From an uncultured Chloroflexia bacterium (GTDB lineage: Bacteria > Chloroflexota > Chloroflexia > Thermomicrobiales > UBA6265), in assembly GCA_963849635.1 (NCBI GenBank), contig CAWKIA010000025.1:196194-260193 (forward strand): 64,000 bases of DNA, written 5' to 3'. Shown piece after piece: positions 1-59,611 of the stretch (its first letter is position 1; the number at the start of each line of letters is the position of its first letter). The notes under the pieces were generated by a model. That model worked only from the letters and a program-made list of their open reading frames with translations, was not told the DNA's origin and ran no database searches. The translations under genes and the position numbers were made by a program.

Positions 1-374
1 TGGAAGTGATGGCCGCGATGGGCGCCGCGCCAAAGCGACTGGTCGCGGTCGGCGGCGGCGCGAAAAACCGACTGTGGCTCCAGATCGTTTCGGATGCCGG
101 CAATGTCCCTCAGGTGATCCCGGAGCGAACGATCGGCGCCGCCTATGGCGACGCCTTTCTCGCCGGTCTGGGCAGCGGCATCATTCCCAACCTCGATGCC
201 TTAGAACGGGACTGGGTCTCGATCGCTGAGATCCTGGAACCGCGGCCGGAGATCACCGCGGCATACCTGCCCTACATCGAGATATCCCGGGCACTGTACG
301 AGCAGACGAAGGACCAGATGCACACGCTCGCCCATCTCGGACAGCGACCACGGTCGCCTGCCGGAGCTGGTTAA
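1..374 (+). CDS. FGGY-family carbohydrate kinase, C-terminal fragment (partial, runs off the window start)
   Basis: ORF 6..374 translates to VAVGGGAKNRLWLQIVSDAGNVPQVIPERTIGAAYGDAFLAGLG, the conserved C-terminal FGGY kinase region. No upstream start lies inside the window. Confidence 0.75.
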   Translation, partial: EVMAAMGAAPKRLVAVGGGAKNRLWLQIVSDAGNVPQVIPERTIGAAYGDAFLAGLGSGIIPNLDALERDWVSIAEILEPRPEITAAYLPYIEISRALYEQTKDQMHTLAHLGQRPRSPAGAG

Positions 375-4811: not shown

Positions 4812-6249
4812 ATGCAGCGCAGGGTCGTGTTAGGCGTCGACTCCGGCACCCAATCTACCAAGGTTGTGGCGTTGGACATCGACCGCATGGAGATCGCCGG
4901 CGAAGGACGTGCTTCCCACACCGGAGGCACGACCCAACACCCGCACGAGTGGTGGGATGCCCTCGTCGCAGCCGTTCGTGCGGCGGTCAGACCGGAGATG
5001 GAAGTCGCGGCGATTTCTGTTGGCGGGCAGCAGCACGGCCTCGTCACGCTCGACCGTAGCGGAGAGATCGTGCGGCCCGCATCGTTGTGGAACAATGTCG
5101 ACGCCGCCCCGGACGCCGAGCGGCTGAACGAGATGGCGGATTTTGCCAGCGAGGTAGGCTCCCGCCTGGTGGCCTCGTTCACGATCGCCAAGCTCGCCCA
5201 CCTTGCCCGCATCGATCCCAAAGCCATGGAGCGGACGGCGTCAGTTTGTCTGCCCCATGACTGGCTGACCTACCGCCTTACAGGCGAACTTGCTACCGAC
5301 CGCGGCGATGCCTCTGGATCCGGCTGGTGGTCACCGGCGACCGGTGAAGTCCGACGGGATCTCCTGGCGCTCGCGGTCGGTCCGGAGAAAGCGGAGACGC
5401 TCAACGTCCCTTCGGTATGCAGTCCGGATCAACCTGCCGGCTTGCTGACCCCCACGGCCGCCGACAGCACTCAACCTGCCGGCGGGCATTCCGGTCGGTC
5501 CGGGAACCGGCGATAACATGGCCGCCGCGTTAGGCATCGGCGCGACTGATGCCGAACTTGTCATCAGCCTGGGGACGAGCGGCACCGCCTATGCCGTCAG
5601 CAACCATCCAACATGCGATCCCTCTGGGGCGGTCTGCGGCTTCGCCGACGCGACCGGGCGCTTCCTGCCTCTGGCCTGCATGATCAACTGCACCCGGGTC
5701 GTCGATATCATCGCCCGGATGTTCGGGATCGATCCGCGTACGACTCTCGACCGGCTCGAAGGCATCGAACCTGGAGCTGGAGGCCTGGTCATGCTCCCTT
5801 ACCTTGGGGGCGAGCGCACGCCGAATCTACCCAACGCAACCGGATCACTCCTTGGCCTGACCGAATCCAATGCGGCGCCGGACCTCGTCGTCCGGGCTGC
5901 CCTGGACGGAGTCGCGGCGGGACTCGCCTATTGCCAGGAGGCACTCGCCGATCTGGGAGTTCGCAAAGATCGGGTAACGCTCGTGGGTGGCGGCAGTGCC
6001 CACCCAACCTGGCAACAGGCGATCGCCGACGCCACCGGCCTGCCGGTAACGGTCCGCGGCGGCGGAGAGCACGCCGCCAGGGGAGCCGCCATTCAGGCGG
6101 CGGCAATTGCTCAGGGGGTCGCTGTCCGGGATCTGGCTGAATCATCACGACCGGGCGTATTGGCCGAGCGCGAACCACGGCCCGAAATGCGCGCATCGTT
6201 CCGTCTCGATGAGAGGCGCGAACTGATTGCCGAACTGGCGGGACGCTAA
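4812..6249 (+). CDS. xylB: Xylulokinase-like FGGY kinase, interrupted by a frameshift near 5462-5472
   Basis: ORF 4812..5516 (frame 0) carries the FGGY N-domain: VLGVDSGTQSTKVVALD...GGQQHGLVTLD. ORF 5518..6249 (frame 1) carries the C-domain: GDNMAAALG...LVGGGSAHPTWQQAIADATGLPV. In frame 1 the upstream sequence reads NLPAGIPVGPGTGDN, so it is one gene with a 1-nt indel. Confidence 0.85.
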
Positions 6250-18060: not shown

Positions 18061-18242
18061 AACTGGCGGGGACTGGATGATGGCTGCTGTCCGAGCCGGA
18101 CGGTTTGATGCGCTGCCCGGGCCCGTGCCCTAGCCGGGTGTGCCGCTTGCCTGAGTGCGGGATCAGACTTCCTCCCCGCCGGATTCTTCTGAGTGTGGTT
18201 TGGGACGTATTGATCGTGTGACGAGTCCATCGAAGTGGAGCA

Positions 18243-31369: not shown

Positions 31370-32957
31370 ATGGGCGGACTCATCGTCATCGTTATCGGAT
31401 TGGTCTTCGTCGTCTTAGCGATTCTGGCGATCTCGGCGACGCTTTTCCGCAAAGTGGGGCCGAACCAGGCGCTGATCGTCTACGGATTCGGCGGCACCAA
31501 GGTGATCAAGGGGAGTGGCAAGGTCGTCTGGCCGATGGTGCAGCAGTCGAGAGAGCTCTCCCTGGAGCTCATGAGTTTTGACGTAGCGCCTACCCAGGAT
31601 CTCTACACGAATCAGGGCGTGGCGGTGAACGTCGAAGCCGTGGCTCAGATCAAGGTCAAGTCCGATCCGGTGAGCATCCTGACCGCGGCCGAGCAGTTTC
31701 TGACGAAACCGACGGAGGAGCGTAAGGCGCTGATCCGCCTGGTGATGGAAGGCCATCTACGCGGCATCGTCGGTCAACTCACGGTCGAAGGGATCGTGAA
31801 GGAACCGGAGATGGTCGCGGACCGGATGCGCAGCAACGTTGCCGATGACATGAGCAAGATGGGCCTCGAGGTCATCTCGTTCACCATCAGGGAAGTCCGG
31901 GACGGCAACGATTACATCCTCAATATGGGCCGCCCGAACATTGCGTTGGTCCAGCGTGAGGCTGACATCGCCACTGCCGAGGCCGACCGCGACACGGCGA
32001 TCAAACGCGCCAATGCTAGCCGGGAGGCGCGCATCGCCGAGGCCGTCGCGCAGCAGGACGAGGTCATCGCCCGAATGGCGAGCGAGACCAAGCAAGCCGA
32101 GGCCACCCGCGACCTCAACTTGAAGCAAGCGGAATACGCCGCGTCCGTCCAAACCCAGAAGGCCGCGGCCGACAAAGCCTACGAGATCCAAACTAACATT
32201 CAGCAGCAGCGGGTGATCCAGGAGCAGGTCAAGATCGACGAGGTCCGGAAGCAGGGAGAGATCGCGGTCCAGGAGGCCGAGATCCTGCGGCGCGAGAAGG
32301 AACTAATCGCGACCGTTCTGCGCGCCGCTGAGGTCGAACGGCAGCGGATCGAAACTCTGGCCGAGGCCGACAAGCAGCAGCAGGTGCTCCATGCGACCGG
32401 TCAGGCCGAAGCGGTGAGGCTGGCCGGTCAGGCTCAAGCCGAGGTGATTCGGGTCCAGGGTCTGGCGGAGGCCGAGATCATCGATGCCAAGGGTCAGTCC
32501 GAAGCCCGCGCGATGACCACCAAGGCGGCAGCCTACCAGGAGTACAACCAGGCCGCGATCGTCGATCGAATGCTCGGCGAGCATGCCCGAGATCGTCAAG
32601 GCGCTGGCCGAGCCGCTGTCGCGGGTGGATAAGATCACGGTCGTCTCGACCGGCGATGGCAATGGCAACGGCGCGGGCACGGGGATCAACCGTGTTACCG
32701 GAGACATGACCCAGATGATCGCCCAGGTACCGGCGATCCTGGAGTCGCTGACCGGTCTCAACCTCGCCGACATGATGGGCGGCGTCGCCAAGGTTCGCGA
32801 AAATCGCGATGACAGCGCCTACCAGAACGGCAACAGCGGCGCGGCCGGTCACGCGGCGACAGCGGTCGTGGCCGCCCCGGCACCTCCGACTGCCAAACCC
32901 GCCAACAAACCGGCGGCCACCGAGGAGCCGACCCAGGCACCTGAGGTCGATCAGTAG
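31370..32957 (+). CDS. Flotillin-like SPFH/band-7 protein, with a frameshift near 32570-32585
   Basis: N-terminal TM, an SPFH domain, and a long Ala/Glu/Gln-rich coiled coil (EAEIIDAKGQSEAR ...). The C-terminus continues in ORF 32583..32957. Confidence 0.8.
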
Positions 32958-32985
32958 GTCTTCTTCAACACTGCATATGGACGTG

Positions 32986-33019
32986 GGGGCGCCTCATTCG
33001 AGGCGCCCCACACGTTTTC
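32986..33019 (+). terminator. Rho-independent terminator after the flotillin gene
   Basis: GGGGCGCCTC-ATTC-GAGGCGCCCC (10-bp stem) followed by ACACGTTTTC. Confidence 0.6.
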
Positions 33020-33165
33020 AGGATCGGCCGGACGGCCACGCTTGATGGTCTGGCGGCGAAGTCGAACGAGCGTGCTATCCTTGCGCGGATGGTGGCCTAA
33101 CCGCCCGTCGCCCCGTGCGCACCCCACCATTTTTCGGGGCGTTTTGGAATGTGGAAAGTGGTCGG

Positions 33166-33756
33166 ATGGCCGACGATGCGTTTGAAACCGGTTCCGGCCC
33201 GGCCCTCGAGGCGCAGCGGCTCCGAGTTGAAGCAATAGGGCAGCCCGGGCAACGCCGGTTTCGTCTCCTGGCCGTAGTCGATGGCGACACCCACATCGTG
33301 TGGATGGAGAAACAGCAGTTGCAGGCGCTTGGGTTGGCGCTGGAGCAGCTGTTGGAGCAATTGCCTGACGGTGGGCCCGATTTGGGCCCGGCGAATCTTC
33401 CCCTGGACTTTGACACCCAGACCGCCAGCCAGTTCCGCGCGGGTCGTATGGAACTGGGCTATGACGAGCGCCGCGACCGACTGGTCATCGCCGCCCACGA
33501 TATGCAGCGCGACGACGACGATGACGATGACGATACGATTGACTTGGAGCGGAGCCGACCTAACTTCGCCTGCCGCCTGACCCGCGCCCAGGCCCGGGAG
33601 ATCAGCGCGGATGCCGCCGCGGTCGTCTCCGCTGGCCGGCCGCGGTGCACGATGTGCGGCCAGCCGATGAGCCCTGAGGGTCACACCTGCCCACACATGA
33701 ACGGTCACCTGCCGCTCGTCCTCGACGATGCCGAGGTGGACGAGGACGCCGAATAA
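33166..33756 (+). CDS. DUF3090-like protein
   Basis: A poly-Asp stretch and a C-terminal CTMCGQPMSPEGHTCPHMNGH zinc-binding motif. Overall resembles the DUF3090 family (recalled from memory). Confidence 0.55.
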   Translation: MADDAFETGSGPALEAQRLRVEAIGQPGQRRFRLLAVVDGDTHIVWMEKQQLQALGLALEQLLEQLPDGGPDLGPANLPLDFDTQTASQFRAGRMELGYDERRDRLVIAAHDMQRDDDDDDDDTIDLERSRPNFACRLTRAQAREISADAAAVVSAGRPRCTMCGQPMSPEGHTCPHMNGHLPLVLDDAEVDEDAE

Positions 33757-33917
33757 GAGGCGCGCCAATCGTGAACTGGGCAGCCTCACCATCAATCATT
33801 TGATGGCGTACAGCCAAAGGTATTGCGGTTTGGATTGAAGCGGGTCTCATTCGCTTGCGGTTGTGCAGCCGAGCGTCGTCAGCTACGATCGTTAGCCCTT
33901 ACGAAAACGTCTCGTGG

Positions 33918-33946
33918 TTGACACGCCTATCCGAACCGTCTAGGAT
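33918..33946 (+). promoter_or_regulatory. ilv-leu operon promoter (TTGACA, 17-bp spacer, TAGGAT)
   Basis: TTGACA at 33918-33923, a 17-bp spacer, then TAGGAT at 33941-33946, about 50 nt upstream of the leader-peptide ORF. Confidence 0.6.
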
Positions 33947-33994
33947 GACAGAAGGAATCGTGCAAACGTGACCGAAAGCGCAAAAGAGAGACTG

Positions 33995-34096
33995 ATGAAC
34001 ACGTTCGTGGCTCGCCCAAGCTCCATCATTATTGGCCTCGTACTTATCGAGCTCCCAGTAGGGAGCTATTCGTGTTGGCGAGGCCCGAAGCACTAG
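33995..34096 (+). CDS. ilv-leu leader peptide (33 aa, MNTFVARPSSIIIGLVLIELPVGSYSCWRGPKH)
   Basis: A short ORF containing the run I-I-I-G-L-V-L-I-E-L-P-V (8 of 12 residues are Ile/Leu/Val). It sits between the promoter and a terminator hairpin upstream of ilvB. AGAGAG RBS-like sequence. Confidence 0.55.
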   Translation: MNTFVARPSSIIIGLVLIELPVGSYSCWRGPKH

Positions 34097-34136
34097 CGCA
34101 GCGCGCACCAAGATGAGCACCGACGGCGGTGCGACG

Positions 34137-34162
34137 GGCCTCCCGAATAGGGGGGCTTTTTT
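34137..34162 (+). terminator. Attenuator terminator upstream of ilvB (GCCTCCC-GAATA-GGGGGGC followed by TTTTTTG)
   Basis: 7-bp GC stem (with one G-U pair) followed by T6. Lies 40 nt after the leader-peptide stop and 160 nt before the ilvB ATG. Confidence 0.6.
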
Positions 34163-34323
34163 GTTGTCCTCTGATCGACGCGGCAAGCCGGCAAGACGGC
34201 TAGTAACGACGGCAAACGGGTTCCTGCCGCAACGGCGCGGCGCGAGGTCACCGAGTGGCCCACGGCAAGACAGAAGACGGCGGGTCTTACCGCCGCCAGT
34301 GAGCAGGATCAAGGAGAACGATC

Positions 34324-36108
34324 ATGGCGGTTGCCAGTCCTCCCAATCGCGGCACCATCGCCCCGCTGGCCGCGCACTCGGGTTCGCTGGGGCGGGCAAT
34401 CTTCGAGGCTATCGCCCGGGGTGAGCAGCCGACACTCACCGGGTCCGAGATCACCTGCGCCAGCCTTGTCGCCGAAGGGGTGACGACCGTCTTCGGCTAC
34501 CCCGGCGGCGCCGTAATCCCGCTCTACGATGCCCTGCCGCGATTCGATCTGCATCATGTCCTGGTTCGGTTCGAGCAGTGGGCCGCACTCGCCGCCGATG
34601 GCTATGCTCGCGCGACCGGCAAGGTCGGCGTTTGCATTGCCACCTCCGGCCCTGGCGCCACCAATCTCGTCACCGGCCTCGCCAACAGCCAACTCGACTC
34701 CGTGCCGATCGTCGCCATCACCGGCCAGGTGACGCAGGCCCTCATCGGCCGGGATGCCTTCCAAGAGGTCGACATCACCGGGATCACCTTGCCGGTGACG
34801 AAGCACAACTATCTCGTGCAGACGGCGGCGGATATCGCCCCCACGATCAAAGAGGCATTCCACCTGGCCGCCTCCGGTCGGCCGGGACCGGTCCTGGTCG
34901 ATATTCCCAAGAGCGTCTTCCAAGCAAACGCACCGTTCTACTACCCAGAGAGTGTCTCCCGCCGCGGCTACCAGCCATCTCACACGCCGAATATGCGCCA
35001 GGTCCGGCTGGCGGCCGAGGCGATCAACTCAGCCAAGAAGCCGCTCATCATGGCGGGGCACGGTATTTTGCTCTCCGGTGGCACGGAGGAGTTTCGACAG
35101 TTCGTCGAGCGGACCGGCATGCCGGTGATCTTTACCTTGCTGGGCCTCGGCTGCTTCCCGGAGGATCATCCGCTCGCCCTGGGCCTGATGGGCATGCACG
35201 GGCACAAGCATGTCAATGACGCGCTCGAAGAGTGCGATCTGCTCGTGAATATTGGCGCCCGCTTTGACGACCGGGCAACCGGGCGAATTGACGGCTTTGC
35301 TCCACATGCGAAGGTGGTCCACGTCGACATCGATCCAGCCGAAATCGGCAAGAACGTAGTGACCGCCGTGCCGGTCGTTGGGGATGCGCGCGAGGCATTG
35401 CGCCTCCTGCTGGGCGAGGTCCAGGAGCGCCGCCACGATTCGTGGATGGGCTGGATCGATTCCCGGCGGAATCGGGTGCTCGAAGCCGCCCTGGAGGACC
35501 TGCCGACGACACCCGAGCCGTACGCAATCGTCAAAGCCATCGCGAAGGCAACCAACGGCGAGGCGATCGTTGCCACCGATGTCGGCCAGCACCAGATGTG
35601 GACCGCCCAGCACTTCGGATTCAATCACCCTGACCGAAATATCACCTCCGGCGGCCTAGGCACGATGGGCTTTGGCCTGCCGGCCGCCATCGGCGCCAAG
35701 CTCGGCCGGCCTGACCTGGAGGTCTGGGCGATCGTCGGTGACGGCGGCATCCAGATGTCGCTGAACGAGTTCGCGACCGCCGTTCAGGAAGGGCTTGACA
35801 TCAATATCGCGATCATCAACAACGGCTACCTGGGCATGGTCCGCCAGTGGCAAGACCTCTTCCACGGAAAGAACTACTCCGAAGTCCAGATCTCCGCACC
35901 GGACTTCGTCAAGCTCGCTGAGGCCTATGGCATGACGGGGATCAGGGTCACGACCGACGCCGAGATTGTGCCGGCCATCGAAAAGGCGCGGAGCATCCCC
36001 GGTCCGGTCCTGGTCGAGTTCGTGATTACCCCGGAAGCCAATGTCTACCCGATGGTGCCGCCAGGCGGAAGCAACTCCGAGATGTGGCACGAGCGGTTCG
36101 AGGAGTAG
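34324..36108 (+). CDS. ilvB: Acetolactate synthase large subunit
   Basis: 594 aa. TPP enzyme with GYPGGAVIPLYDAL..., GVCIATSGPGATNLVTGLANS, and the C-terminal GDGGIQMSLNEFAT. Confidence 0.9.
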   Translation: MAVASPPNRGTIAPLAAHSGSLGRAIFEAIARGEQPTLTGSEITCASLVAEGVTTVFGYPGGAVIPLYDALPRFDLHHVLVRFEQWAALAADGYARATGKVGVCIATSGPGATNLVTGLANSQLDSVPIVAITGQVTQALIGRDAFQEVDITGITLPVTKHNYLVQTAADIAPTIKEAFHLAASGRPGPVLVDIPKSVFQANAPFYYPESVSRRGYQPSHTPNMRQVRLAAEAINSAKKPLIMAGHGILLSGGTEEFRQFVERTGMPVIFTLLGLGCFPEDHPLALGLMGMHGHKHVNDALEECDLLVNIGARFDDRATGRIDGFAPHAKVVHVDIDPAEIGKNVVTAVPVVGDAREALRLLLGEVQERRHDSWMGWIDSRRNRVLEAALEDLPTTPEPYAIVKAIAKATNGEAIVATDVGQHQMWTAQHFGFNHPDRNITSGGLGTMGFGLPAAIGAKLGRPDLEVWAIVGDGGIQMSLNEFATAVQEGLDINIAIINNGYLGMVRQWQDLFHGKNYSEVQISAPDFVKLAEAYGMTGIRVTTDAEIVPAIEKARSIPGPVLVEFVITPEANVYPMVPPGGSNSEMWHERFEE

Positions 36109-36115
36109 ACGGAGT

Positions 36116-36180
36116 TTCAAGTTCCAAGAAGTGAGGCGCAAGTCACTTGGACCTTGAGACTTGGAACTTGAGACTTGGAA
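36116..36180. repeat. Hairpin-forming tandem repeat in the ilvB-ilvN spacer (GAGACTTGGAACTT twice, plus inverted AGTTCCAAG)
   Basis: TCAAGTTCCAAG ... CTTGGACCTTGAGACTTGGAACTTGAGACTTGGAACTTGA. Confidence 0.6.
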
Positions 36181-36205
36181 CTTGATTCTCGTCTAGGAGT
36201 TTGAG

Positions 36206-36796
36206 ATGAGTACGTCCCGTCATACGCTCGTCGTTCAGGTCGAAGATCAACCCGGGGTGCTCAACCGGGTGGTCTCCTTGATGCGGCGCCGCTCCTTCAA
36301 TATCGACTCGATCACGGTCGGGCACTCGGAGATTCCGGGCGTTTCTCGAATGACGATCGTGGTGGATGGAGAAGCGAACGACGTCGAACAGGTCGGGAAG
36401 CAGCTCTATAAGCTGATGGAAGTCCTGAAGGTCACCGACCTGGACGACTCCAACTGCCTGGCGCGCGAGCTCGCACTGATCAAGGTGGCAGCTAAAGCTC
36501 AGCACCGGGGCGAGATCCTGCAGATTGCCCAGATTTATGATGCCCGCGTCGTCGACGCGAGCCCAAGCACGCTGCTGCTGGAGATGACCGGCACCGAAGA
36601 CAAGATCGATTCTCTGCTGGCCATGCTGCGCCAATTTGGCATCCGGGAGTTGGTGCGCACCGGCCGGATCGCGATGGTCCGGGGTGCCTCGACCGTCAGC
36701 GCCAAGCCGGCGACGGCCACGTCGCCGAGCGTCAGCAATGGCACCAACGGCCGCTCGGCGGAGATTCCAGTGGAAATCGTATCGATTGCAACTTGA
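36206..36796 (+). CDS. ilvN: Acetolactate synthase small (regulatory) subunit
   Basis: ACT domain HTLVVQVEDQPGVLNRVVSLMRRRSFNIDSITVG. Confidence 0.9.
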   Translation: MSTSRHTLVVQVEDQPGVLNRVVSLMRRRSFNIDSITVGHSEIPGVSRMTIVVDGEANDVEQVGKQLYKLMEVLKVTDLDDSNCLARELALIKVAAKAQHRGEILQIAQIYDARVVDASPSTLLLEMTGTEDKIDSLLAMLRQFGIRELVRTGRIAMVRGASTVSAKPATATSPSVSNGTNGRSAEIPVEIVSIAT

Positions 36797-36964
36797 CCGG
36801 TTAGCGATCACGGAACGCCGCCACACCGGGCGGCGTTCCTCTTTACTTCGACTTTTGGCCAGGAACGCCGCTGTTCCCAATCGTCCACCGGTCAGGCGAC
36901 TATAGCGCGCTTCAGCACAAAATCATTGACGTGTGGTGAGATGGGCCCGCATGCGCGGGCGTAG

Positions 36965-38026
<1,062 letters not shown>

Positions 38027-38105
38027 CCGCGGCGGTCGTTGGGGTGGCGCGCGGCAGTCAGCCCGCGCCACTTCTCCCGCCGATCTGAACAAGGAGCAGG
38101 AACCC

Positions 38106-39671
38106 GTGAGCGAATCGACCGGCCAGCCTGACGTAGCCAATCGCGACCCGCGGAACCGCGTCATCATCTTCGACACGACGCTTCGTGATGGAGAGCAGTC
38201 CCCTGGCGCGACCCTTACCGCCGACGAAAAACTCGAAGTAGCCGACGCGCTGGTAGCTCTCGGCGTTGATGTGATTGAAGCGGGATTTCCAGCCGCATCT
38301 CCCGGCGACTTCGAGGCGGTCCGCGCGATCGCCCAGCGGTCCAAGGGTGTGGTCATCGCCGGGCTTGCCCGGGCGGTCGAATCGGACATCGAGCGGGCGG
38401 CCCAGGCGGTCCGGGTGGCGGAAGCCGCCCGGATTCACACGTTCCTCTCCTCCTCTGACATCCACCTCCAGCACCAGATGCGAATGAGCCGCGAGCAGGC
38501 GCTGGACCGAGTGACGGCCTGCGTCTCCTACGCGCGGTCATTCGTCTCGGACGTCGAGTTTTCCGCGATGGACTCGACTCGCTCCGACTGGGACTATCTG
38601 GCGGAAATGTTCAAGCGTGCCGTCGAGGCGGGCGCGACCACGCTCAACGTGCCGGACACCGTCGGATACACGACGCCGGACGAGTATTCGGCTCTGATGC
38701 GCCACCTCCGGGAACGTGTCCCTGGCATCGAGAATTGCATCATCTCCGTCCACTGCCACGACGACCTGGGCATGGCAACCGCGAATACTCTGGCGGCAGT
38801 TCAGGCGGGCGCCCGTCAGGTCGAAGTGACGATCAACGGGATCGGCGAGCGGGCAGGCAACACCTCCCTGGAGGAGGTGGTGATGGCGATCCGCACCCGA
38901 CCCGACACCTACGGCGGCACCTGGACTGGCGTCATGGCTGAGCGACTGGTGCCGACGAGCCGGATCGTCAGCACGCTGACCGGAGTGGTCGTGCAGCCGA
39001 ACAAGGCGATCGTCGGGGCAAATGCGTTTGCGCACGAGTCCGGTATCCACCAGGACGGCGTGCTCAAGGAGCGCACAACCTACGAGATCATGGACCCCGC
39101 CGATGTCGGTTGGGAAGGAACGAAGCTCGTCCTGGGCAAGCACTCCGGCAGGAAGGGCTTCAAGGCGACCCTGGACGACCTCGGTATCCGACTGGCCGAA
39201 GATCAGGTGAACGAGGTCTATAACCGCTTCCTGGTGCTCGCCGACCGGAAGAAGACCGTCACCGCCGCCGACTTGATCGCCCTCGTCAGTGATGAGCTCG
39301 ATACTCCCGGCGACGGCTTTACCCTCAATCGCTGGAACGCCAGCCTTGGCAGCGCCGGACCTGCTACCGCCAGCGTGATTATTACCCGCGGCGATGGCCA
39401 GTTCACCGGCGACGGCGAGGGCAACGGCCCGGTCGATGCCCTCTTCAAGGCGATCGAGGCCGCCACCGGAATTGAGAACGAGCTGATCGCCTACCACGTC
39501 GAAGCTGTGACGCCGGGCGAGGACGCCCAGGGTCAGGTTCAGGTTCGGATCAAGGTCGGGGACACGGTCTACACCGGCCACGGCTTAGCCACCGACATCG
39601 TCGAGGCTAGCGCCCGCGGCTATCTGGCCGCGCTGAGCAAAGTTCAGATGAAGGAAAAGGCGGCGGTGTAA
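38106..39671 (+). CDS. leuA: 2-isopropylmalate synthase
   Basis: FDTTLRDGEQSPGA, and HCHDDLGMATANTLAAVQAGA. GTG start is preceded by AAGGAG. 521 aa with the LeuA dimerisation/regulatory domain. Confidence 0.85.
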   Translation: MSESTGQPDVANRDPRNRVIIFDTTLRDGEQSPGATLTADEKLEVADALVALGVDVIEAGFPAASPGDFEAVRAIAQRSKGVVIAGLARAVESDIERAAQAVRVAEAARIHTFLSSSDIHLQHQMRMSREQALDRVTACVSYARSFVSDVEFSAMDSTRSDWDYLAEMFKRAVEAGATTLNVPDTVGYTTPDEYSALMRHLRERVPGIENCIISVHCHDDLGMATANTLAAVQAGARQVEVTINGIGERAGNTSLEEVVMAIRTRPDTYGGTWTGVMAERLVPTSRIVSTLTGVVVQPNKAIVGANAFAHESGIHQDGVLKERTTYEIMDPADVGWEGTKLVLGKHSGRKGFKATLDDLGIRLAEDQVNEVYNRFLVLADRKKTVTAADLIALVSDELDTPGDGFTLNRWNASLGSAGPATASVIITRGDGQFTGDGEGNGPVDALFKAIEAATGIENELIAYHVEAVTPGEDAQGQVQVRIKVGDTVYTGHGLATDIVEASARGYLAALSKVQMKEKAAV

Positions 39672-39792
39672 GGGGAGAGGACCTCACCTCCTACCTCCTC
39701 TCTCCCCTAGCCCACTGCGGTGGAGAGGGGCGTCAGGTGGCGCCGTTTCCGGGATCGCCGTTCTCCCCACTATGTAGTCAATTGAAGGAACC

Positions 39793-41202
39793 ATGATGGC
39801 CGAGCGTCCACGAACATTGAGCGACAAGATCTGGGAGCGCCACGTCATTCATTCGGCGCCGGGGGAGCCCGATCTCCTCTTTATCGACCTCCACCTCATC
39901 CACGAGGTGACCACGCCCCAGGCGTTCGAGGGGTTGCGAATGGCGGGGCGCAAGGTGCGCCGCCCAGATCTCACCGTCGCCACCGCGGACCACAATGTGC
40001 CGACGGTCGGGATTCACCTGCCCGTCGCGGACCCGATCTCGGCCACCCAGCTCTCCCACCTGACGCGCAACTGCGAGGAGTTCGGGATCAAGCTCTACCC
40101 GATGGGCGATCCCGGTCAGGGCATCGTGCACGTGATTGGGCCGGAGCTCGGCCTGACCCAGCCGGGGATGACGATCGTCTGCGGCGACAGTCACACCTCC
40201 ACCCACGGCGCCTTCGGAGCGCTCGCGTTCGGGATTGGAACGAGCGAGGTCGAGCACGTGCTCGCCACCCAAAGCCTGCCGCAACGGCGGCCGGGAACAA
40301 TGGCGATCACGGTCGAAGGCGAACTGCCGCCAGGGTCGTCGGCAAAGGACATCATCCTGGCGATCATTGGCCGGATCGGCACCGGCGGAGGAATCGGCTC
40401 GATCATCGAGTACCGCGGCTCGGCCATCCGGGCGCTGACGATGGAAGGCCGGATGACGGTCTGCAACATGACGATCGAGGCTGGAGCAAAGGCAGGCATG
40501 ATCGCTCCAGACGACACGACCTTCGCCTACATCGAGGGCAAGCCTCATGCGCCGAAAGGCGTCGAGTGGGAGCGCGCACTGGACGACTGGCACTCACTGC
40601 GGACCGATGACGACGCCAAGTTCGACGCCGAGATCGTCTTCGACGCCCACGAGATCCGGCCCCATGTCTCCTGGGGCACCAATCCCGGTCAGGTTGTCCC
40701 GATCGACGATGTTGTTCCTGACCCGAAAGAGATGACCGACCCCAGCTCTCGAGACGCCGCCACCCGAGCACTGGCCTACATGGAGCTGACACCGGGCACG
40801 CCAATGCGCGATATCCCGGTCGACACGGTCTTCATTGGCTCGTGCACCAATAGCAGGATCGAAGACCTGCGAATCGCCGCCTCTGTCCTCGAGGGCCGCA
40901 AGGTGCGCGAGGGGATGCGGGCGATGGTCGTGCCAGGATCGATGCGGGTCAAGTCCCAGGCGGAAGCCGAAGGGCTAGACCGCATCTTCGAGGCGGCGGG
41001 GTTTGAGTGGCGATCTGCCGGGTGCTCGATGTGCCTCGGCATGAACCCGGATCAACTCAAGCCGAAAGAGCGTTGCGCCTCAACCAGCAATCGCAACTTC
41101 GAAGGTCGTCAGGGTCGCGGCAGCCGCACCCATCTCGTCTCGCCCGCGATTGCCGCGGCAACAGCGGTCGTCGGCTCATTCGCGACGCCCGCCGACCTGT
41201 AA
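39793..41202 (+). CDS. leuC: 3-isopropylmalate dehydratase large subunit
   Basis: Aconitase-family motifs GIVHVIGPE..., [23 protein letters not shown], and [10 protein letters not shown]. Confidence 0.9.
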
Positions 41203-41251
41203 CCTCCAATCCCAACCTACCTACACGCCTTAGACCGATTGAGAGGACACG

Positions 41252-41860
41252 ATGAAACCAGTACGCATCATCACCGGCACGGCATTGCCGCTCGACCGCA
41301 GCGACGTTGATACCGACCAGATCATTCCCGCCCACTGGCTCAAGCGGGTCGAGCGGACCGGCTTCGGGGCTGGACTCTTTTCGTCCTGGCGGGAGAATGA
41401 GCCGGACTTCGTCCTCAACCGGCCAGAGTTCGCCGGGGCCAGGATCATGGTCGCCGGGCCGAACTTTGGCGTGGGCTCCTCTCGGGAGCATGCGGTCTGG
41501 GCGTTGCAGGACTGCGGCTTCGAGGCGGTCGTCTCGCCCCGGTTCGGCGACATCTTTCGCAACAACGCGACAAAGACGGGGCTCGTCACTGCCGCGATTC
41601 ATCCAGAGATGGCCGAAGCGCTTCTCCGGGCGGTCGAACGTGATCCGAACTTGATCGTGACGGTCGATGTCGAGCGCAAGGTCGTCGAGGCTCCTGGCGC
41701 CAAGATCCGCGCCGAGTTCCCGCTCGACGACTTCACCCAGCACCGCCTGCTCGAAGGTCTCGATGACATTGGCCTGACGCTGACGCACGAGGATGCCGTC
41801 CTGGCATACGAAGCGAAACGCTCGTCCTGGTTGCCCTCGGTCGACACGGCTGCGGTTTAG
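41252..41860 (+). CDS. leuD: 3-isopropylmalate dehydratase small subunit
   Basis: Aconitase swivel domain NFGVGSSREHAVWALQDCG. Confidence 0.9.
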   Translation: MKPVRIITGTALPLDRSDVDTDQIIPAHWLKRVERTGFGAGLFSSWRENEPDFVLNRPEFAGARIMVAGPNFGVGSSREHAVWALQDCGFEAVVSPRFGDIFRNNATKTGLVTAAIHPEMAEALLRAVERDPNLIVTVDVERKVVEAPGAKIRAEFPLDDFTQHRLLEGLDDIGLTLTHEDAVLAYEAKRSSWLPSVDTAAV

Positions 41861-41865
41861 CGGGA

Positions 41866-42225
41866 ATGACCGAGAAGGCCAACCTCGCCGAGAAGTTCGC
41901 CAAGATCGAGGGACACTGGCAGCCCCGGATCGTGGCTGAACTGAATGGGCAGCACGTCAAGCTCGCGAAGGTGCAGGGCGATTTTCCATGGCATCATCAC
42001 GAGACGGAGGATGAACTTTTCTACGTCGTTTCTGGACGATTGCTTCTGCGATTCCGTGATCGTGAGGTGTGGTTAGAACCGGGCGAACTCCTGGTGGTAC
42101 CGCACGGCGTCGAGCACGCGCCCTTCGCCGAGGTCGAGACGCAGATCGTTCTTTTCGAGCCGGCGGGCACCCTCAATACCGGCACCGAGGAGAACGAGCG
42201 GACGTACCAGTCGGATTGGGTGTAA
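41866..42225 (+). CDS. Cupin-domain protein inserted between leuD and leuB
   Basis: 119 aa, with the two cupin His motifs G...[15 protein letters not shown] and PHGVEH. Confidence 0.6.
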
Positions 42226-42274
42226 CCTGCGGCGTCGACCTAAACGCACCTGTCACGGAGGACACACACGCTCG

Positions 42275-43375
42275 ATGGCAATTACCGCGACGATCGCACT
42301 GCTGCCGGGAGATGGCGTCGGCCCGGAGATCATGGCGGAGGCCCGCAAGGTCCTGAACGCCATCGAGCATCGCTCCGGACATCGGTTCGATCTCTTCGAG
42401 ACCGCCATTGGCGGGGCGGCCATTGACGCCCACGGGGTTCCGTTGCGGTCGGAGGATATCGAGCGCTGCCGGGCCGCCGATGCCGTCTTGCTGGGTGCCG
42501 TCGGTGGCCCAAAGTGGGATAACCCCAACGCCAAAATCCGGCCGGAACAAGGTCTTCTCTCAATCCGGAAGGCCCTTGGACTGTATGCCAACCTGCGGCC
42601 GGTCGCTGTTCTCGATGCGCTTGCGGACACCTCCCCACTCAAGCCAGAGATCGTGCGCGGCGTCGACATTCTCGTTGTACGCGAGCTTACCGGAGGGCTC
42701 TACTTTGGTCGCCCGTCGCGCCAATGGCGCGAGCGCCGGGGCCGAGCCGCGATCGACACGCTGATCTACCGGGAACATGAGATCAAACGTATTGCTCGTC
42801 TCGCATTCGCCCAGGCGAGGGAGCGACGCGGTTTCGTCGTGAGTGTCGACAAGGCCAATGTCCTGTCGTCGTCGCGGCTCTGGCGAACGATCCTGACCGA
42901 GGTCGCCGCCGAATTCCCCGACGTGAAACTGGAGCACCAACTGGTCGACGCAGCCGCGATGGCGCTGATTCGCAACCCGGGCCGCTACGACGTGATTGTC
43001 ACCGAGAATATGTTCGGCGATATCCTGACGGACGAGGCCTCCGTGCTTGCCGGCTCGATCGGGCTGCTGCCATCGGCCAGTCTTGGGGCAGCGGCGGCGG
43101 ACGGGCGGGTCATCGGTCTGTACGAGCCGATCCACGGCAGCGCTCCGGACATCGCCGGCCAGGGCAAGGTCAATCCCGTCGGGATGATCCTCTCGGTAGC
43201 GGCAATGCTGCGCACGTCGTTGCGACTCGCTGATGAGGCGACCGCAATCGAGAACGCGGTTCGGGCCGTGATCGATTCCGGGACTCGTACGGCCGATATC
43301 CAGGCCGCCGGTCAGGAACCGGTCTCTACGTCAGCGATGGGCGATGCAATTGAGGCTCGCTTGCGGGCAGAGTAA
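42275..43375 (+). CDS. leuB: 3-isopropylmalate dehydrogenase
   Basis: Isocitrate/isopropylmalate dehydrogenase motif [27 protein letters not shown]. Confidence 0.9.
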
Positions 43376-43386
43376 CGGAGCGACCA

Positions 43387-43875
43387 ATGCGGATCTACAT
43401 GGCGGGTCCGATGTTCTCCGCCGCTGAGGTCGCCTTCAACTTGCGGCTCGCCGCTCGCCTGCGCGAAAACGACTTCGAGGTCTACTGCCCGAACGAGAGC
43501 GAGCCGATCAACGACAAGACCCGGCACGATGTCACCGCCCAGATGATCTACAACTTTGACATCGATGAGTTACGGGCGAGCAATGTCGCCCTCTTCCAGG
43601 TCAGCGAGGACTCGGGATCCAACTGGGAGGCGGGCTATATGGATTGCCTCTCCCGCTTCGTCGATTCCGGCCGCTACTACGGAGTTCTGGGCATGGCGAC
43701 CGACATCCGCCTCTCCAGCCCACCGAACCCGGCTCAATCCGGCGTCGACAATCAAGCGGGTTATGTCAATCCGTTGGTTGCCGGTGGGCTCCAGCTGTCG
43801 CTGGGCGTTGTGCGAACGGAGGAGGAGGCAATTGCCCGCCTCATCCAGATCCGTCAGGAACGGGAAGAAAGATAG
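43387..43875 (+). CDS. Nucleoside 2-deoxyribosyltransferase-like protein
   Basis: MRIYMAGPMF N-terminus and an acidic active-site region, as in the NDT / LOG-like fold. Confidence 0.5.
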   Translation: MRIYMAGPMFSAAEVAFNLRLAARLRENDFEVYCPNESEPINDKTRHDVTAQMIYNFDIDELRASNVALFQVSEDSGSNWEAGYMDCLSRFVDSGRYYGVLGMATDIRLSSPPNPAQSGVDNQAGYVNPLVAGGLQLSLGVVRTEEEAIARLIQIRQEREER

Positions 43876-57551: not shown

Positions 57552-58189
57552 GCCAGTCCGACCCGAACGTCGCGCCGGCAAGCGCCTCTGTCGCCGAGCA
57601 CCGGGCAGCCGCAACCAATCAGGTTCGCTGCGCCGTCCTGACAGTTAGTGATACGCGGACCGCGGAGACGGACAAGAGTGGCGACCTCATCAAACAGCTG
57701 CTGAGTGAGGCCGAACATCCAATCGTTGCCTACCGGATCGTCCCAGATGAGCCGGGACAAATCGGTCCCTTGCTCGATGAGTGGACCGCGAATCCCGAAA
57801 TCGACGTCATCATCTCCAATGGGGGCACTGGGATTGCCGCTCGCGATACGACCTACGATGTTGTGGCAGGCAAGATTGAGAAGCGGCTGGACGGCTTCGG
57901 CGAGTTATTCCGGATGCTGAGCTGGTCCGAGGTCGGCGCCGCGGCGATGCTCTCACGGGCGGTTGCCGGTGTGATCGACCGGACGGTGATCTTCTCCCTG
58001 CCGGGCAGTTCAAACGCCGTCCGCCTCGGCATGGAGAAGCTGATTCTGCCGGAGATGGCCCACGTCGTTTTCCGAGATCAACAAGCAGTTGGCGCCGTGA
58101 TGTGTGACGCTATGGATTGGTGGTTGACGATGGAAGTCGAGGAATGCACACGGGCGCCGGGTACCGGCGCCCCGGCCCATAGCTGCTAA
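57548..58189 (+). CDS. moaB: Molybdenum cofactor biosynthesis protein B (MoaB/MogA family)
   Basis: AVLTVSDTR...[22 protein letters not shown]...[11 protein letters not shown]. Start overlaps the peptidase stop. Confidence 0.8.
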
Positions 58190-58245
58190 TTGGGATGCCT
58201 GATTGAACGAGAGCAGCCGACCGTATCGAGATTGGATCACGTTCA

Positions 58246-59611
58246 ATGACAGACACGACCACCGCGCCCACCACGGGCACCAGATTAGGAACCCGCAAGC
58301 CACAGGTACTCAAGGGCTTTCGCGATTACATGCCCTCCCAGATGCTGCTGCGCCAGCGCATCATCGGCACCTTCCGCGAGATCTTCGAGCGTCACGGCTT
58401 CGAGCCGCTCGACACGCCGGCCCTGGAGTACTTGGAGATTCTGACAGGCAAGGCCGGCGAGAATGAAAAGCTGATGTATCAGTTCGAGGATGCCGGCGGC
58501 CGCGAAGTTGGGATGCGCTACGACCTCACCGTGCCCCTGGCCCGGGTGGCGGCAATGCACCAGAACGAGATCGTCCTGCCGTTCAAGCGCTACCACATCG
58601 CACCGGTCTGGCGGGCCGAAAAACCGCAGCGCGGGACGAACCCGCGAGTTCTGGCAGTGTGACGCCGATATCGTCGGCAGTACGAGCCAGCTCGCCGACG
58701 CCGAAGCGATCGCCGTGATGGCCGAAGCACTGGCGGCAATCGGACTACCCCAGGCGACGATCAAGATCAACCACCGCAAGCTCCTCACCGCTCTGGCCCT
58801 GCTCTCCGGCGTCGATTCCGACCGGGCAGGGAGCGTCTACCGGGCGATCGACCGGTTGGACAAGGTCGGAGCCGAGGGAGTCCGGCGTGAGCTTATCGAC
58901 CTTGGCGTCGAAGAGCGCGCGGCGGCGAATATCCTCGATCTCGTGACGCGAACGGGCGAGCCCGACACGCTGCTGGCGACGCTCCGCGACGAGCTCACGA
59001 ATGTCCCTGGGGCAATCGAGGCGATTGACGACCTGGAACGGGTCTTCAACTACCTGGCGCAGCTCGGTGTTCCGGCGGCGGCGTACTCGCTGGATCTGGC
59101 GCTGGCCCGGGGGCTGGATTACTACACCGGACCGGTCTTTGAAGCCGCCGTCGAGCAACCCAAGATCGGATCAGTCGGCGGCGCCGGCCGCTACGACGAC
59201 CTGATCGGCACTTTCCTGGGCCGGCCAGTTCCGGCAACGGGGATGTCCCTCGGCATCGAACGGATCATCGAGGTCGTGCAGGAGTTCTCGCTGCTGCCGG
59301 TCAAGGAGACCGTCGTCGATGTCTTCGTCGCTGCCTTCCCGGAGACGCTGGGCAGCGCGGCCGGGATCGCCCGCGACCTGCGCGCCGCCGGACACCGGGT
59401 GGACCTGACGCTGCTTCCTAACCGCGGGATCGGAGATCAGCTCAAGTACGCCGGCCGCAAGGGAGTCCCGGTCGCCGTGATCGCTGGCGAGGCCGAACTG
59501 GCGGCGGGGACGGTCGCGGTCAAGGATCTGATTTCTGGGGAGCAACGGACGGTACCCCTGATCGAACTGCCAGGTGCGGTCCGCGATCTTCTCGGAGAGA
59601 ATTCCGCTTGA
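58246..59611 (+). CDS. hisS: Histidyl-tRNA synthetase, with a frameshift near 58630-58645
   Basis: KGFRDYMPSQMLLRQRIIGTFREIFERHGFEPLDTPALEY and RYDLTVPLARV (class II motifs) in ORF 58246..58662. REFWQCDADIVG and the C-terminal anticodon-binding domain in ORF 58490..59611. Confidence 0.85.

Follow-up and report, generated by a model that had tools for sequence, protein, structure and literature searches.

A probable ribosome-mediated attenuator in the leader of a fused ilv-leu operon from Chloroflexota

The leaders of the enterobacterial ilvGMEDA (ilvL), ilvBN (ivbL), trp and leu operons consist of a promoter-proximal short open reading frame (ORF) rich in codons for the end-product amino acids, together with four pairing regions and a run of U residues. 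Rare control codons are a hallmark of such attenuator leaders, as in the leu leader of Escherichia coli. In Bacillus subtilis, a fused ilvBNC-leuABCD operon is controlled by the ilv-leu T-box through tRNA-Leu-dependent antitermination. Candidate or proven ilvB leader peptides have been reported in Actinobacteria (PMC1262725, PMC10272879, PMC11857589) and in Staphylococcus (PMC5794164), and ilvB leaders have also been described in Leptospira, along with the multi-phylum ilvB-OMG motif (PMC10272879). The ilvBNC attenuator of Corynebacterium glutamicum (three-hairpin model; ilvB-II upstream ORF motif) has been tested by mutagenesis (PMC11857589, PMC10272879). Here we describe an element located upstream of an ilvBNC-leuACD-cupin-leuB operon in a stretch of 64,000 nucleotides (nt; 64% G+C) from an uncultured Chloroflexia bacterium of the order Thermomicrobiales (contig CAWKIA010000025.1), hereafter the window. 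The element comprises a promoter, a leader ORF of 33 codons, mutually exclusive RNA pairings and an intrinsic terminator. It is very probably a classical ribosome-mediated leader-peptide transcription attenuator that couples expression of the operon to the availability of charged Ile-, Leu- and Val-tRNA.

The likeness to the enterobacterial ilv, leu and trp attenuators extends to a protector formed by pairing regions 1 and 2, an antiterminator formed by regions 2 and 3, a terminator formed by regions 3 and 4, a stop codon beside region 2, a multivalent set of Ile, Leu and Val codons, and the use of rare codons. Unlike those leaders, the element occurs in a Chloroflexota lineage, its operon fuses ilvBNC with leuACDB, an extra invariant GCUCCC/GGGAGC hairpin lies inside the protector, all pairing strands are CUCC/GGAG repeats, and there is no homology in sequence or structure, as no Rfam leader family was matched. 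Specifically, Rfam returned no family for the window at the gathering threshold, for the leader region (33000-35000, E up to 10) or for the leaders of 12 relatives (E up to 1), the only matches being spurious microRNA and viral ones far below gathering scores. As in C. glutamicum, ilvBNC comes first in the operon and is preceded by a leader ORF with branched-chain codons and then by terminator, antiterminator and anti-antiterminator hairpins. However, the two systems belong to different phyla and sequence families, the leu genes are also part of the operon here, and it is the Corynebacterium element that has been validated experimentally. Short ORFs with Ile, Val and Leu codons (there also Thr) and terminators upstream of ilvB have likewise been predicted by comparative genomics in Mycobacterium and Streptomyces, in the ilvB-OMG motif and in Leptospira (PMC1262725, PMC10272879). 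In contrast to these motifs, the leader of the window and those of its relatives were assigned to no family in the Rfam searches given above.

The element works like the curated leader and ilvB-associated families without sequence membership in any of them, and it is a new sequence family and a new lineage for a known mechanism, which itself is unchanged. An initial annotation of this DNA had set the locus against the assumption that branched-chain operons outside Proteobacteria and a few Actinobacteria usually rely on T-boxes or other control. This framing overstated the novelty, since ilvB leader peptides are known in Actinobacteria, Staphylococcus and Leptospira and from the multi-phylum ilvB-OMG motif. 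We found no paper describing a Chloroflexota ilvB leader of this kind, and a prior mention in the 2010 survey by Lopatovskaya et al. is possible. The element provides a concrete candidate for RNA-level control of branched-chain synthesis in Chloroflexota, a phylum in which hardly any gene regulation has been characterised.

The B. subtilis ilv-leu T-box shares with this locus the same kind of fused operon and the choice between terminator and antiterminator in the 5' leader. There, however, the sensor is an uncharged tRNA bound to the RNA and no leader peptide is involved. Both the Bacillus precedent and the presence of T-boxes in Chloroflexi (Dehalococcoides ileS and trp genes; PMC2494555) bring to mind a translation-independent sensor of uncharged tRNA or of a small molecule, be it a T-box or a metabolite riboswitch. 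We consider this exceedingly unlikely at the present locus, where neither a T-box sequence nor a specifier-loop architecture was seen, where conservation follows a reading frame (see below) and where all three Rfam searches, of the window, of 33000-35000 and of the 12 relatives, came back empty. Membership in the T-box family itself (RF00230) is effectively refuted by the lack of a covariance-model match in any of these searches. As a leader-peptide attenuator, the element would add one more independent lineage in which a leader peptide takes the place of a T-box in ilv control.

Leader ORF and alternative RNA pairings

All features described here lie on the forward (+) strand unless indicated. 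A sequence scan of 33000-35000 detected a sole promoter-like site, a sigma-70-type promoter at 33918-33946 (TTGACA at 33918-33923, a 17-bp spacer and TAGGAT at 33941-33946; 10 of 12 consensus positions), from which transcription would start at about 33953. The leader ORF extends from the ATG at 33995 to the TAG at 34094-34096 (33995..34096) and encodes the 33-residue peptide MNTFVARPSSIIIGLVLIELPVGSYSCWRGPKH in an open frame that is conserved in relatives. Its regulatory block at 34025-34060 (ATC ATT ATT GGC CTC GTA CTT ATC GAG CTC CCA GTA, encoding IIIGLVLIELPV) contains 4 Ile, 3 Leu and 2 Val codons. The high density of these residues reported in the initial annotation is real, and the count for this densest 12-residue stretch of the peptide is nine rather than the eight given there. 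Of the 733 short ORFs counted on the two strands of the window, only 3 contain a stretch with at least 8 Ile, Leu or Val residues in 12. The other two such ORFs, at 18105-18221 (+) and 58110-58313 (-), probably owe their richness in these residues to chance.

Region 1 (GGCCTCG, 34034-34040) lies within the regulatory codons and pairs with 34079-34085 to form the protector, or anti-antiterminator, whose domain (34030-34090) was assigned -29.3 kcal/mol. Region 2 (GAGGCCCG, 34080-34087), the antiterminator strand, ends 7 nt before the stop codon and can pair with either region 1 or region 3. Region 3 (CGGGCCTCCC, 34135-34144) is common to the antiterminator and the terminator, and pairs with either 34080-34087 or region 4 (34150-34158). 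The antiterminator is formed by GAGGCCCG and CGGGCCTC (34135-34142), the latter being part of the 5' arm of the terminator, and its domain was assigned -36.4 kcal/mol. The intrinsic terminator occupies 34136-34162 and consists of the hairpin GGGCCTCCC-GAATA-GGGGGGCTT (34136-34158; -16.2 kcal/mol), in which 34136-34144 pairs with region 4, and of six T residues at 34157-34162. The 1:2, 2:3 and 3:4 pairings (34034-34040/34079-34085, 34080-34087/34135-34142 and 34136-34144/34150-34158, respectively) are mutually exclusive. The best upstream partner of the terminator 5' arm is GAGGCCCG, with a duplex of -18.2 kcal/mol (terminator stem, -15.8 kcal/mol), and shuffled sequences equal this duplex in just 1.3% of cases. 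The choice between exclusive terminator and antiterminator structures that had been anticipated for this leader was thus found between GAGGCCCG:CGGGCCTC and the terminator stem, and over the whole leader the two states are nearly equal in energy (-76.4 kcal/mol for termination versus -75.7 kcal/mol for antitermination).

Two more hairpins accompany these pairings. Hairpin H (AGCTCCC-AGTA-GGGAGCT, 34050-34067), which encodes L-P-V-G-S, lies inside the protector, folds at -13.1 kcal/mol, appeared terminator-like in our scan and is a candidate pause hairpin. The inner hairpin (GCACCG-ACGG-CGGTGC, 34117-34132; -10.5 kcal/mol) lies in the loop of the antiterminator. The initial annotation had placed the promoter, the 33-codon ORF, this inner hairpin, the terminator and a distance of about 160 nt to ilvB correctly. 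It had also proposed the inner hairpin as the alternative, antiterminating structure, a role that we reassign because this hairpin has no base in common with the terminator, is poorly conserved and sits only in the antiterminator loop. Specifically, 67% of its cells are paired in alignment A1, and the region is variable in alignment A2, which contains 76 unique leaders.

The other helices are better represented in the alignments. The protector helix is paired in 82% of cells in A1 and in 73% in A2. In the 76-sequence alignment, the antiterminator helix is paired in 82% of cells, compared with 38-62% in slid controls, and the terminator in 95%. For hairpin H the figures range from 94 to 99% (94.5% in the 76-sequence alignment). 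RNAalifold independently returned the protector core (CUC:GAG), hairpin H and the terminator. The closing pair of hairpin H covaries (CG 17, GC 16, AU 11, GU 3), and so does a pair flanking the antiterminator, for which six pair types were observed (AU 17, CG 10, GC 7, UG 6, GU 3, UA 2).

Conservation of the unit and linkage to ilvB

Homologues of the window IlvB with 73-97% identity were labelled as Thermomicrobiales, Chloroflexia or Chloroflexota metagenome-assembled genomes. Ten relatives (L081-L090) were chosen by IlvB protein similarity only (73-95% identical to the window IlvB in the alignment), and all ten have the promoter-ORF-hairpin-terminator unit upstream of ilvB. In these relatives the unit consists of a TTGAC-type promoter, a short ORF with the core sequence CTCGTACTTA, a GCTCCC-loop-GGGAGC hairpin, GGAGGCC near the stop codon, and a GGCCTCCC-loop-GGGAGGC terminator followed by a T-run. 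The short ORF with its Ile, Leu and Val codons is therefore retained upstream of ilvB in relatives, as had been predicted for an attenuator, with 10 of 10 protein-anchored loci and an open frame in all 76 unique copies.

When metagenomes were scanned with a query of 22 specified bases, drawn from the core and the hairpin, 80 loci were retrieved. Of these, 65 carry a co-oriented ilvB 85-343 nt downstream of the core, the remaining 15 are on contigs that end too early, and no locus was found to lack ilvB. A regular expression for a CCTCC..GGGAGG hairpin plus T-run matched all but five of the motif-bearing loci (four cut by the contig end and one with a weaker T tract), which yielded the 76 unique leaders. 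Likewise, 79 of 81 unique relatives have a promoter of the form TTGACN-16..18-TANNNT at a distance of 73-113 nt 5' of the core, whereas this form did not occur in control regions taken from inside ilvB. Different loci have different genes ahead of the unit (DUF3090, a trypsin-like protease, unknown proteins), which indicates that the unit travels with ilvB.

This linkage also bears on whether the unit might be a separate, self-terminated small gene, for either a hydrophobic micro-protein or a small RNA, whose position next to ilvB is incidental. Longer, transmembrane-like hydrophobic peptides are encoded in some relatives (L001, L002 and L003), and leader peptides as well as the RNAs released by attenuation are able to function in trans in other bacteria (PMC7298713, PMC7968998). 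However, the peptide of the window has only eight consecutive uncharged residues (IIIGLVLI, with one Gly) followed by Glu, too short a run for a membrane helix, and leader peptides vary in sequence outside the RNA-constrained blocks. Moreover, the unit precedes ilvB or ilvD-ilvB in 65 of 65 testable loci whatever the upstream gene, and our scan of 33000-35000 found no second promoter-like site between the terminator and ilvB, so that transcription of ilvB must pass through the terminator. We therefore judge an independent small gene to be very unlikely, and retain an attenuator that belongs to the ilvB operon.

An nhmmer profile built from A2 gave a single match in the window and also found leaders in Anaerolineae (1.8e-8 for L007 and 8.8e-5 for L017). 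In another Anaerolineae metagenome-assembled genome (L074; 1.6e-6), a homologous unit at 505-740 precedes ilvD-ilvB and comprises the promoter TTGACA-17-TATAAA, an ORF encoding MQPIYLIAIIVLIIVELLVLEEPMAVGRVAA, and a CCTCCC/GGGAGG terminator. A scan of genomes with IlvB, in which the matches listed were distant relatives only (at most 61% identical), showed leaders of other Chloroflexota classes. The same layout with different sequences was observed in Sphaerobacter, in another Thermomicrobiales genome, in Thermosporothrix (Ktedonobacteria) and in a Caldilineaceae genome (Caldilineae). The family amounts to about 90 sequences, and every one that could be checked is linked to ilvB or ilvD-ilvB. 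It is absent from Rfam and could be used for annotating genomes and metagenome-assembled genomes.

Other Ile/Leu/Val-rich ORFs were seen outside this family. Loci of Desulfobacterales and other 'delta' lineages (L036, L040, L041, L044, L050, L063 and L073) carry a different conserved leader ORF family upstream of ilvB (…NLISLILVL…GLIMA), and a Sandaracinaceae locus (L011) carries an upstream ORF of this composition with a terminator. In the Anaerolineales locus L017, a long palindromic hairpin downstream of ilvB (4843-4960) gave spurious plant microRNA matches in Rfam on both strands.

Codon choice, ribosome position and the proposed mechanism

Around the core (-36 to +33), the leader frame is free of stop codons in all 76 unique copies, whereas the two alternative frames are open in 15 and 49 of them. 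Upstream of the core, where codons vary and were not fixed by the search pattern, Ile, Leu and Val make up a fraction of 0.33 in frame versus 0.18 and 0.14 in the other frames. The loop lengths of hairpin H differ between leaders by multiples of three. Most of the regulatory codons are rare: in the operon genes, GTA accounts for 3.8% of Val codons, CTT for 8.5% of Leu codons and ATT for 24% of Ile codons. Codons for these amino acids that end in A or T represent 116 of 219 (53%) in 17 leaders versus 268 of 2263 (12%) in ilvB (odds ratio 8.4, p = 6e-43, for sequences that are not independent), and the ratio of ATT to ATC upstream of the core is 112:55 in leaders. At the level of sequence comparison, these patterns establish that the leader frame and its rare codons are under constraint, and the codon bias lends indirect support to translation of the leader and to a response to starvation. 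The frozen block of rare codons would offer a clean case from nature of regulatory selection acting on codon choice.

The core CTCGTACTTA (Leu-Val-Leu plus A; 34037-34046) is identical in all 11 leaders gathered through IlvB similarity alone. Its codons CTC-GTA-CTT are invariant in these protein-anchored leaders, whereas in ilvB of the same genomes a single codon is kept in only 5 of 57 invariant Ile, Leu or Val columns. The tenth base of the core is constant although its codon varies, and no conserved pairing partner was found for GUACUUA of the core. Selection for rare codons may not fully account for the invariance of CTCGTACTTA, and the total invariance of CUCGUACUUA is the one feature without a full explanation.

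In the proposed mechanism, transcription would begin at the promoter (33918-33946) and a ribosome would translate the 33-codon leader. When Ile, Leu and Val are plentiful, the ribosome would reach the TAG at 34094-34096 and cover region 2 (34080-34087). With region 2 masked, region 3 (34135-34144) would be free to pair with region 4 (34150-34158), the terminator would form and RNA polymerase would stop at the T-run, 160 nt before ilvB, leaving the operon off. When any of the three amino acids is scarce, the ribosome would stall on the mostly rare codons at 34025-34060, where its footprint would include region 1 and extend over the 5' half of hairpin H. Region 2, left exposed, would pair with region 3 immediately after the latter is made, which would block the terminator and allow read-through into the operon. 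If the leader is not translated, region 1 and hairpin H would sequester region 2 in the protector, and termination would be the default.

The position of the pairing strands relative to the ribosome was analyzed by masking a ribosome footprint at each codon and folding transcripts cut after region 3 in 11 leaders. With the modelled ribosome on, or shortly before, the Ile/Leu/Val block, region 3 was paired upstream with a probability of 0.7-1.0 in all 11 sequences. This value fell to 0.1-0.6, again in 11 of 11, with the ribosome at the last 8-10 codons or at the stop. In 14 of 17 leaders, the 3' end of the best partner of the terminator 5' arm falls between -11 and +12 nt, counted from the base at which the stop codon begins. 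In these models the geometry is compatible with attenuation, as a stall on the regulatory codons would free strand 2 and a ribosome at the stop would mask it. Thus, the elements are present and conserved upstream of ilvB, their pairings are mutually exclusive and their geometry is compatible with attenuation. The reading of the locus as a ribosome-mediated attenuator, which the initial annotation had put forward, is supported by the conservation of the unit, the open frame, the enrichment of rare codons and the mutually exclusive pairings at the right geometry.

Several observations weigh against this interpretation. In full-length equilibrium folding, a ribosome on the Ile/Leu/Val codons clearly lowered the terminator probability in only 4 of 11 sequences, so the model depends on co-transcriptional kinetics. 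In ribosome-free RNA cut after region 3, the antiterminator was already favoured in most sequences, so that termination by default presupposes, on kinetic grounds, that the protector forms ahead of the antiterminator. Reliance on co-transcriptional order is shared with the classical model. In the cut transcripts, a ribosome placed on codons preceding the block gave the antiterminator as well; this test therefore places the switch-off near the stop codon without tying antitermination specifically to the Ile, Leu and Val codons. Most helix positions are invariant and the covariation is accordingly modest, supportive rather than decisive, and the search pattern behind the 76 sequences prescribed both the core and hairpin H. 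The Shine-Dalgarno sequence of the leader in the window (AGAGAGA) is weak. In Streptomyces coelicolor, substitution of the candidate regulatory codons in a similar-looking ilvB leader was reported to have no effect on regulation (PMC1262725), which means that architecture alone does not prove the mechanism. Finally, it is by inference that the leader is translated, that transcription terminates at the T-run and that the operon responds to amino-acid supply.

Part of these observations would also be explained by an attenuator-like element that does not operate through stalling on Ile, Leu and Val codons, similar to what was reported for ilvB of S. coelicolor. The terminator could be constitutive and partial, or a protein or other factor could bind CUCGUACUUA or the GCUCCC..GGGAGC block. 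Such an element would fit a 10-base core that is invariant beyond what codon choice needs, with its tenth base kept while the codon varies, as well as the clear ribosome-dependent switch in only 4 of the 11 sequences. On the other hand, a protein-operated switch does not predict a frame that is open in 76 of 76 copies, the enrichment of Ile, Leu and Val in the variable codons upstream of the core, the rare-codon bias, or the fixed position of the stop codon beside region 2. We consider control without codon-specific stalling quite unlikely, and favour stalling of the ribosome on the regulatory codons.

A broader possibility, which we regard as improbable, is that these leaders form an old family spanning the phylum Chloroflexota (members in Thermomicrobiales and Anaerolineae, similarly arranged leaders in Ktedonobacteria and Caldilineae) in which the frozen CUC-GUA-CUU-A and the invariant GCUCCC/GGGAGC hairpin mean more than rare-codon sensing. 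If so, the frozen block and hairpin could represent a signal for pausing or for ribosome-polymerase coupling, a contact for a protein or tRNA, or a role in trans for the terminated leader RNA of about 210 nt.

The downstream operon and its surroundings

The operon downstream of the leader (34324-43375) consists of ilvB (34324-36108), ilvN (36206-36796), ilvC (36998-38026), leuA (38106-39671), leuC (39793-41202), leuD (41252-41860), an ORF of 119 residues matching Pfam Cupin_2 (41866-42225) and leuB (42275-43375). Except for the cupin ORF, each of these genes matched its NCBIfam equivalog above the curated cut-off. Next after leuB, an ORF at 43387-43875 resembles nucleoside 2-deoxyribosyltransferases.

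The ATG of ilvB at 34324 lies about 160 nt 3' of the T-run and is preceded by the Shine-Dalgarno sequence AAGGAG (34311-34316). The intervening spacer, which forms the 5' untranslated region of ilvB (34163-34323; 160 nt), is variable and poorly conserved even among close relatives. It contains three exact copies of CGGCAAG (34181, 34189 and 34263) plus near-copies, and a short stem-loop (GCCGC-AACGGC-GCGGC, 34226-34241) shared with the nearest relatives only. A second conserved element in this spacer was considered and rejected, as the spacer is variable apart from that stem-loop. Likewise, an ORF on the minus strand (33899-34312) and one on the plus strand that overlaps the leader (34113-34424) were rejected as genes, since neither has a Pfam match and the differences in leader length are not multiples of three.

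Upstream of the leader-ilvB unit, a DUF3090 gene was observed in the window (region 31370-33756) and in five of the protein-anchored relatives (L082, L086, L088, L089 and L090). In the window, L088 and L089, a Band_7/flotillin gene lies ahead of the DUF3090 gene.

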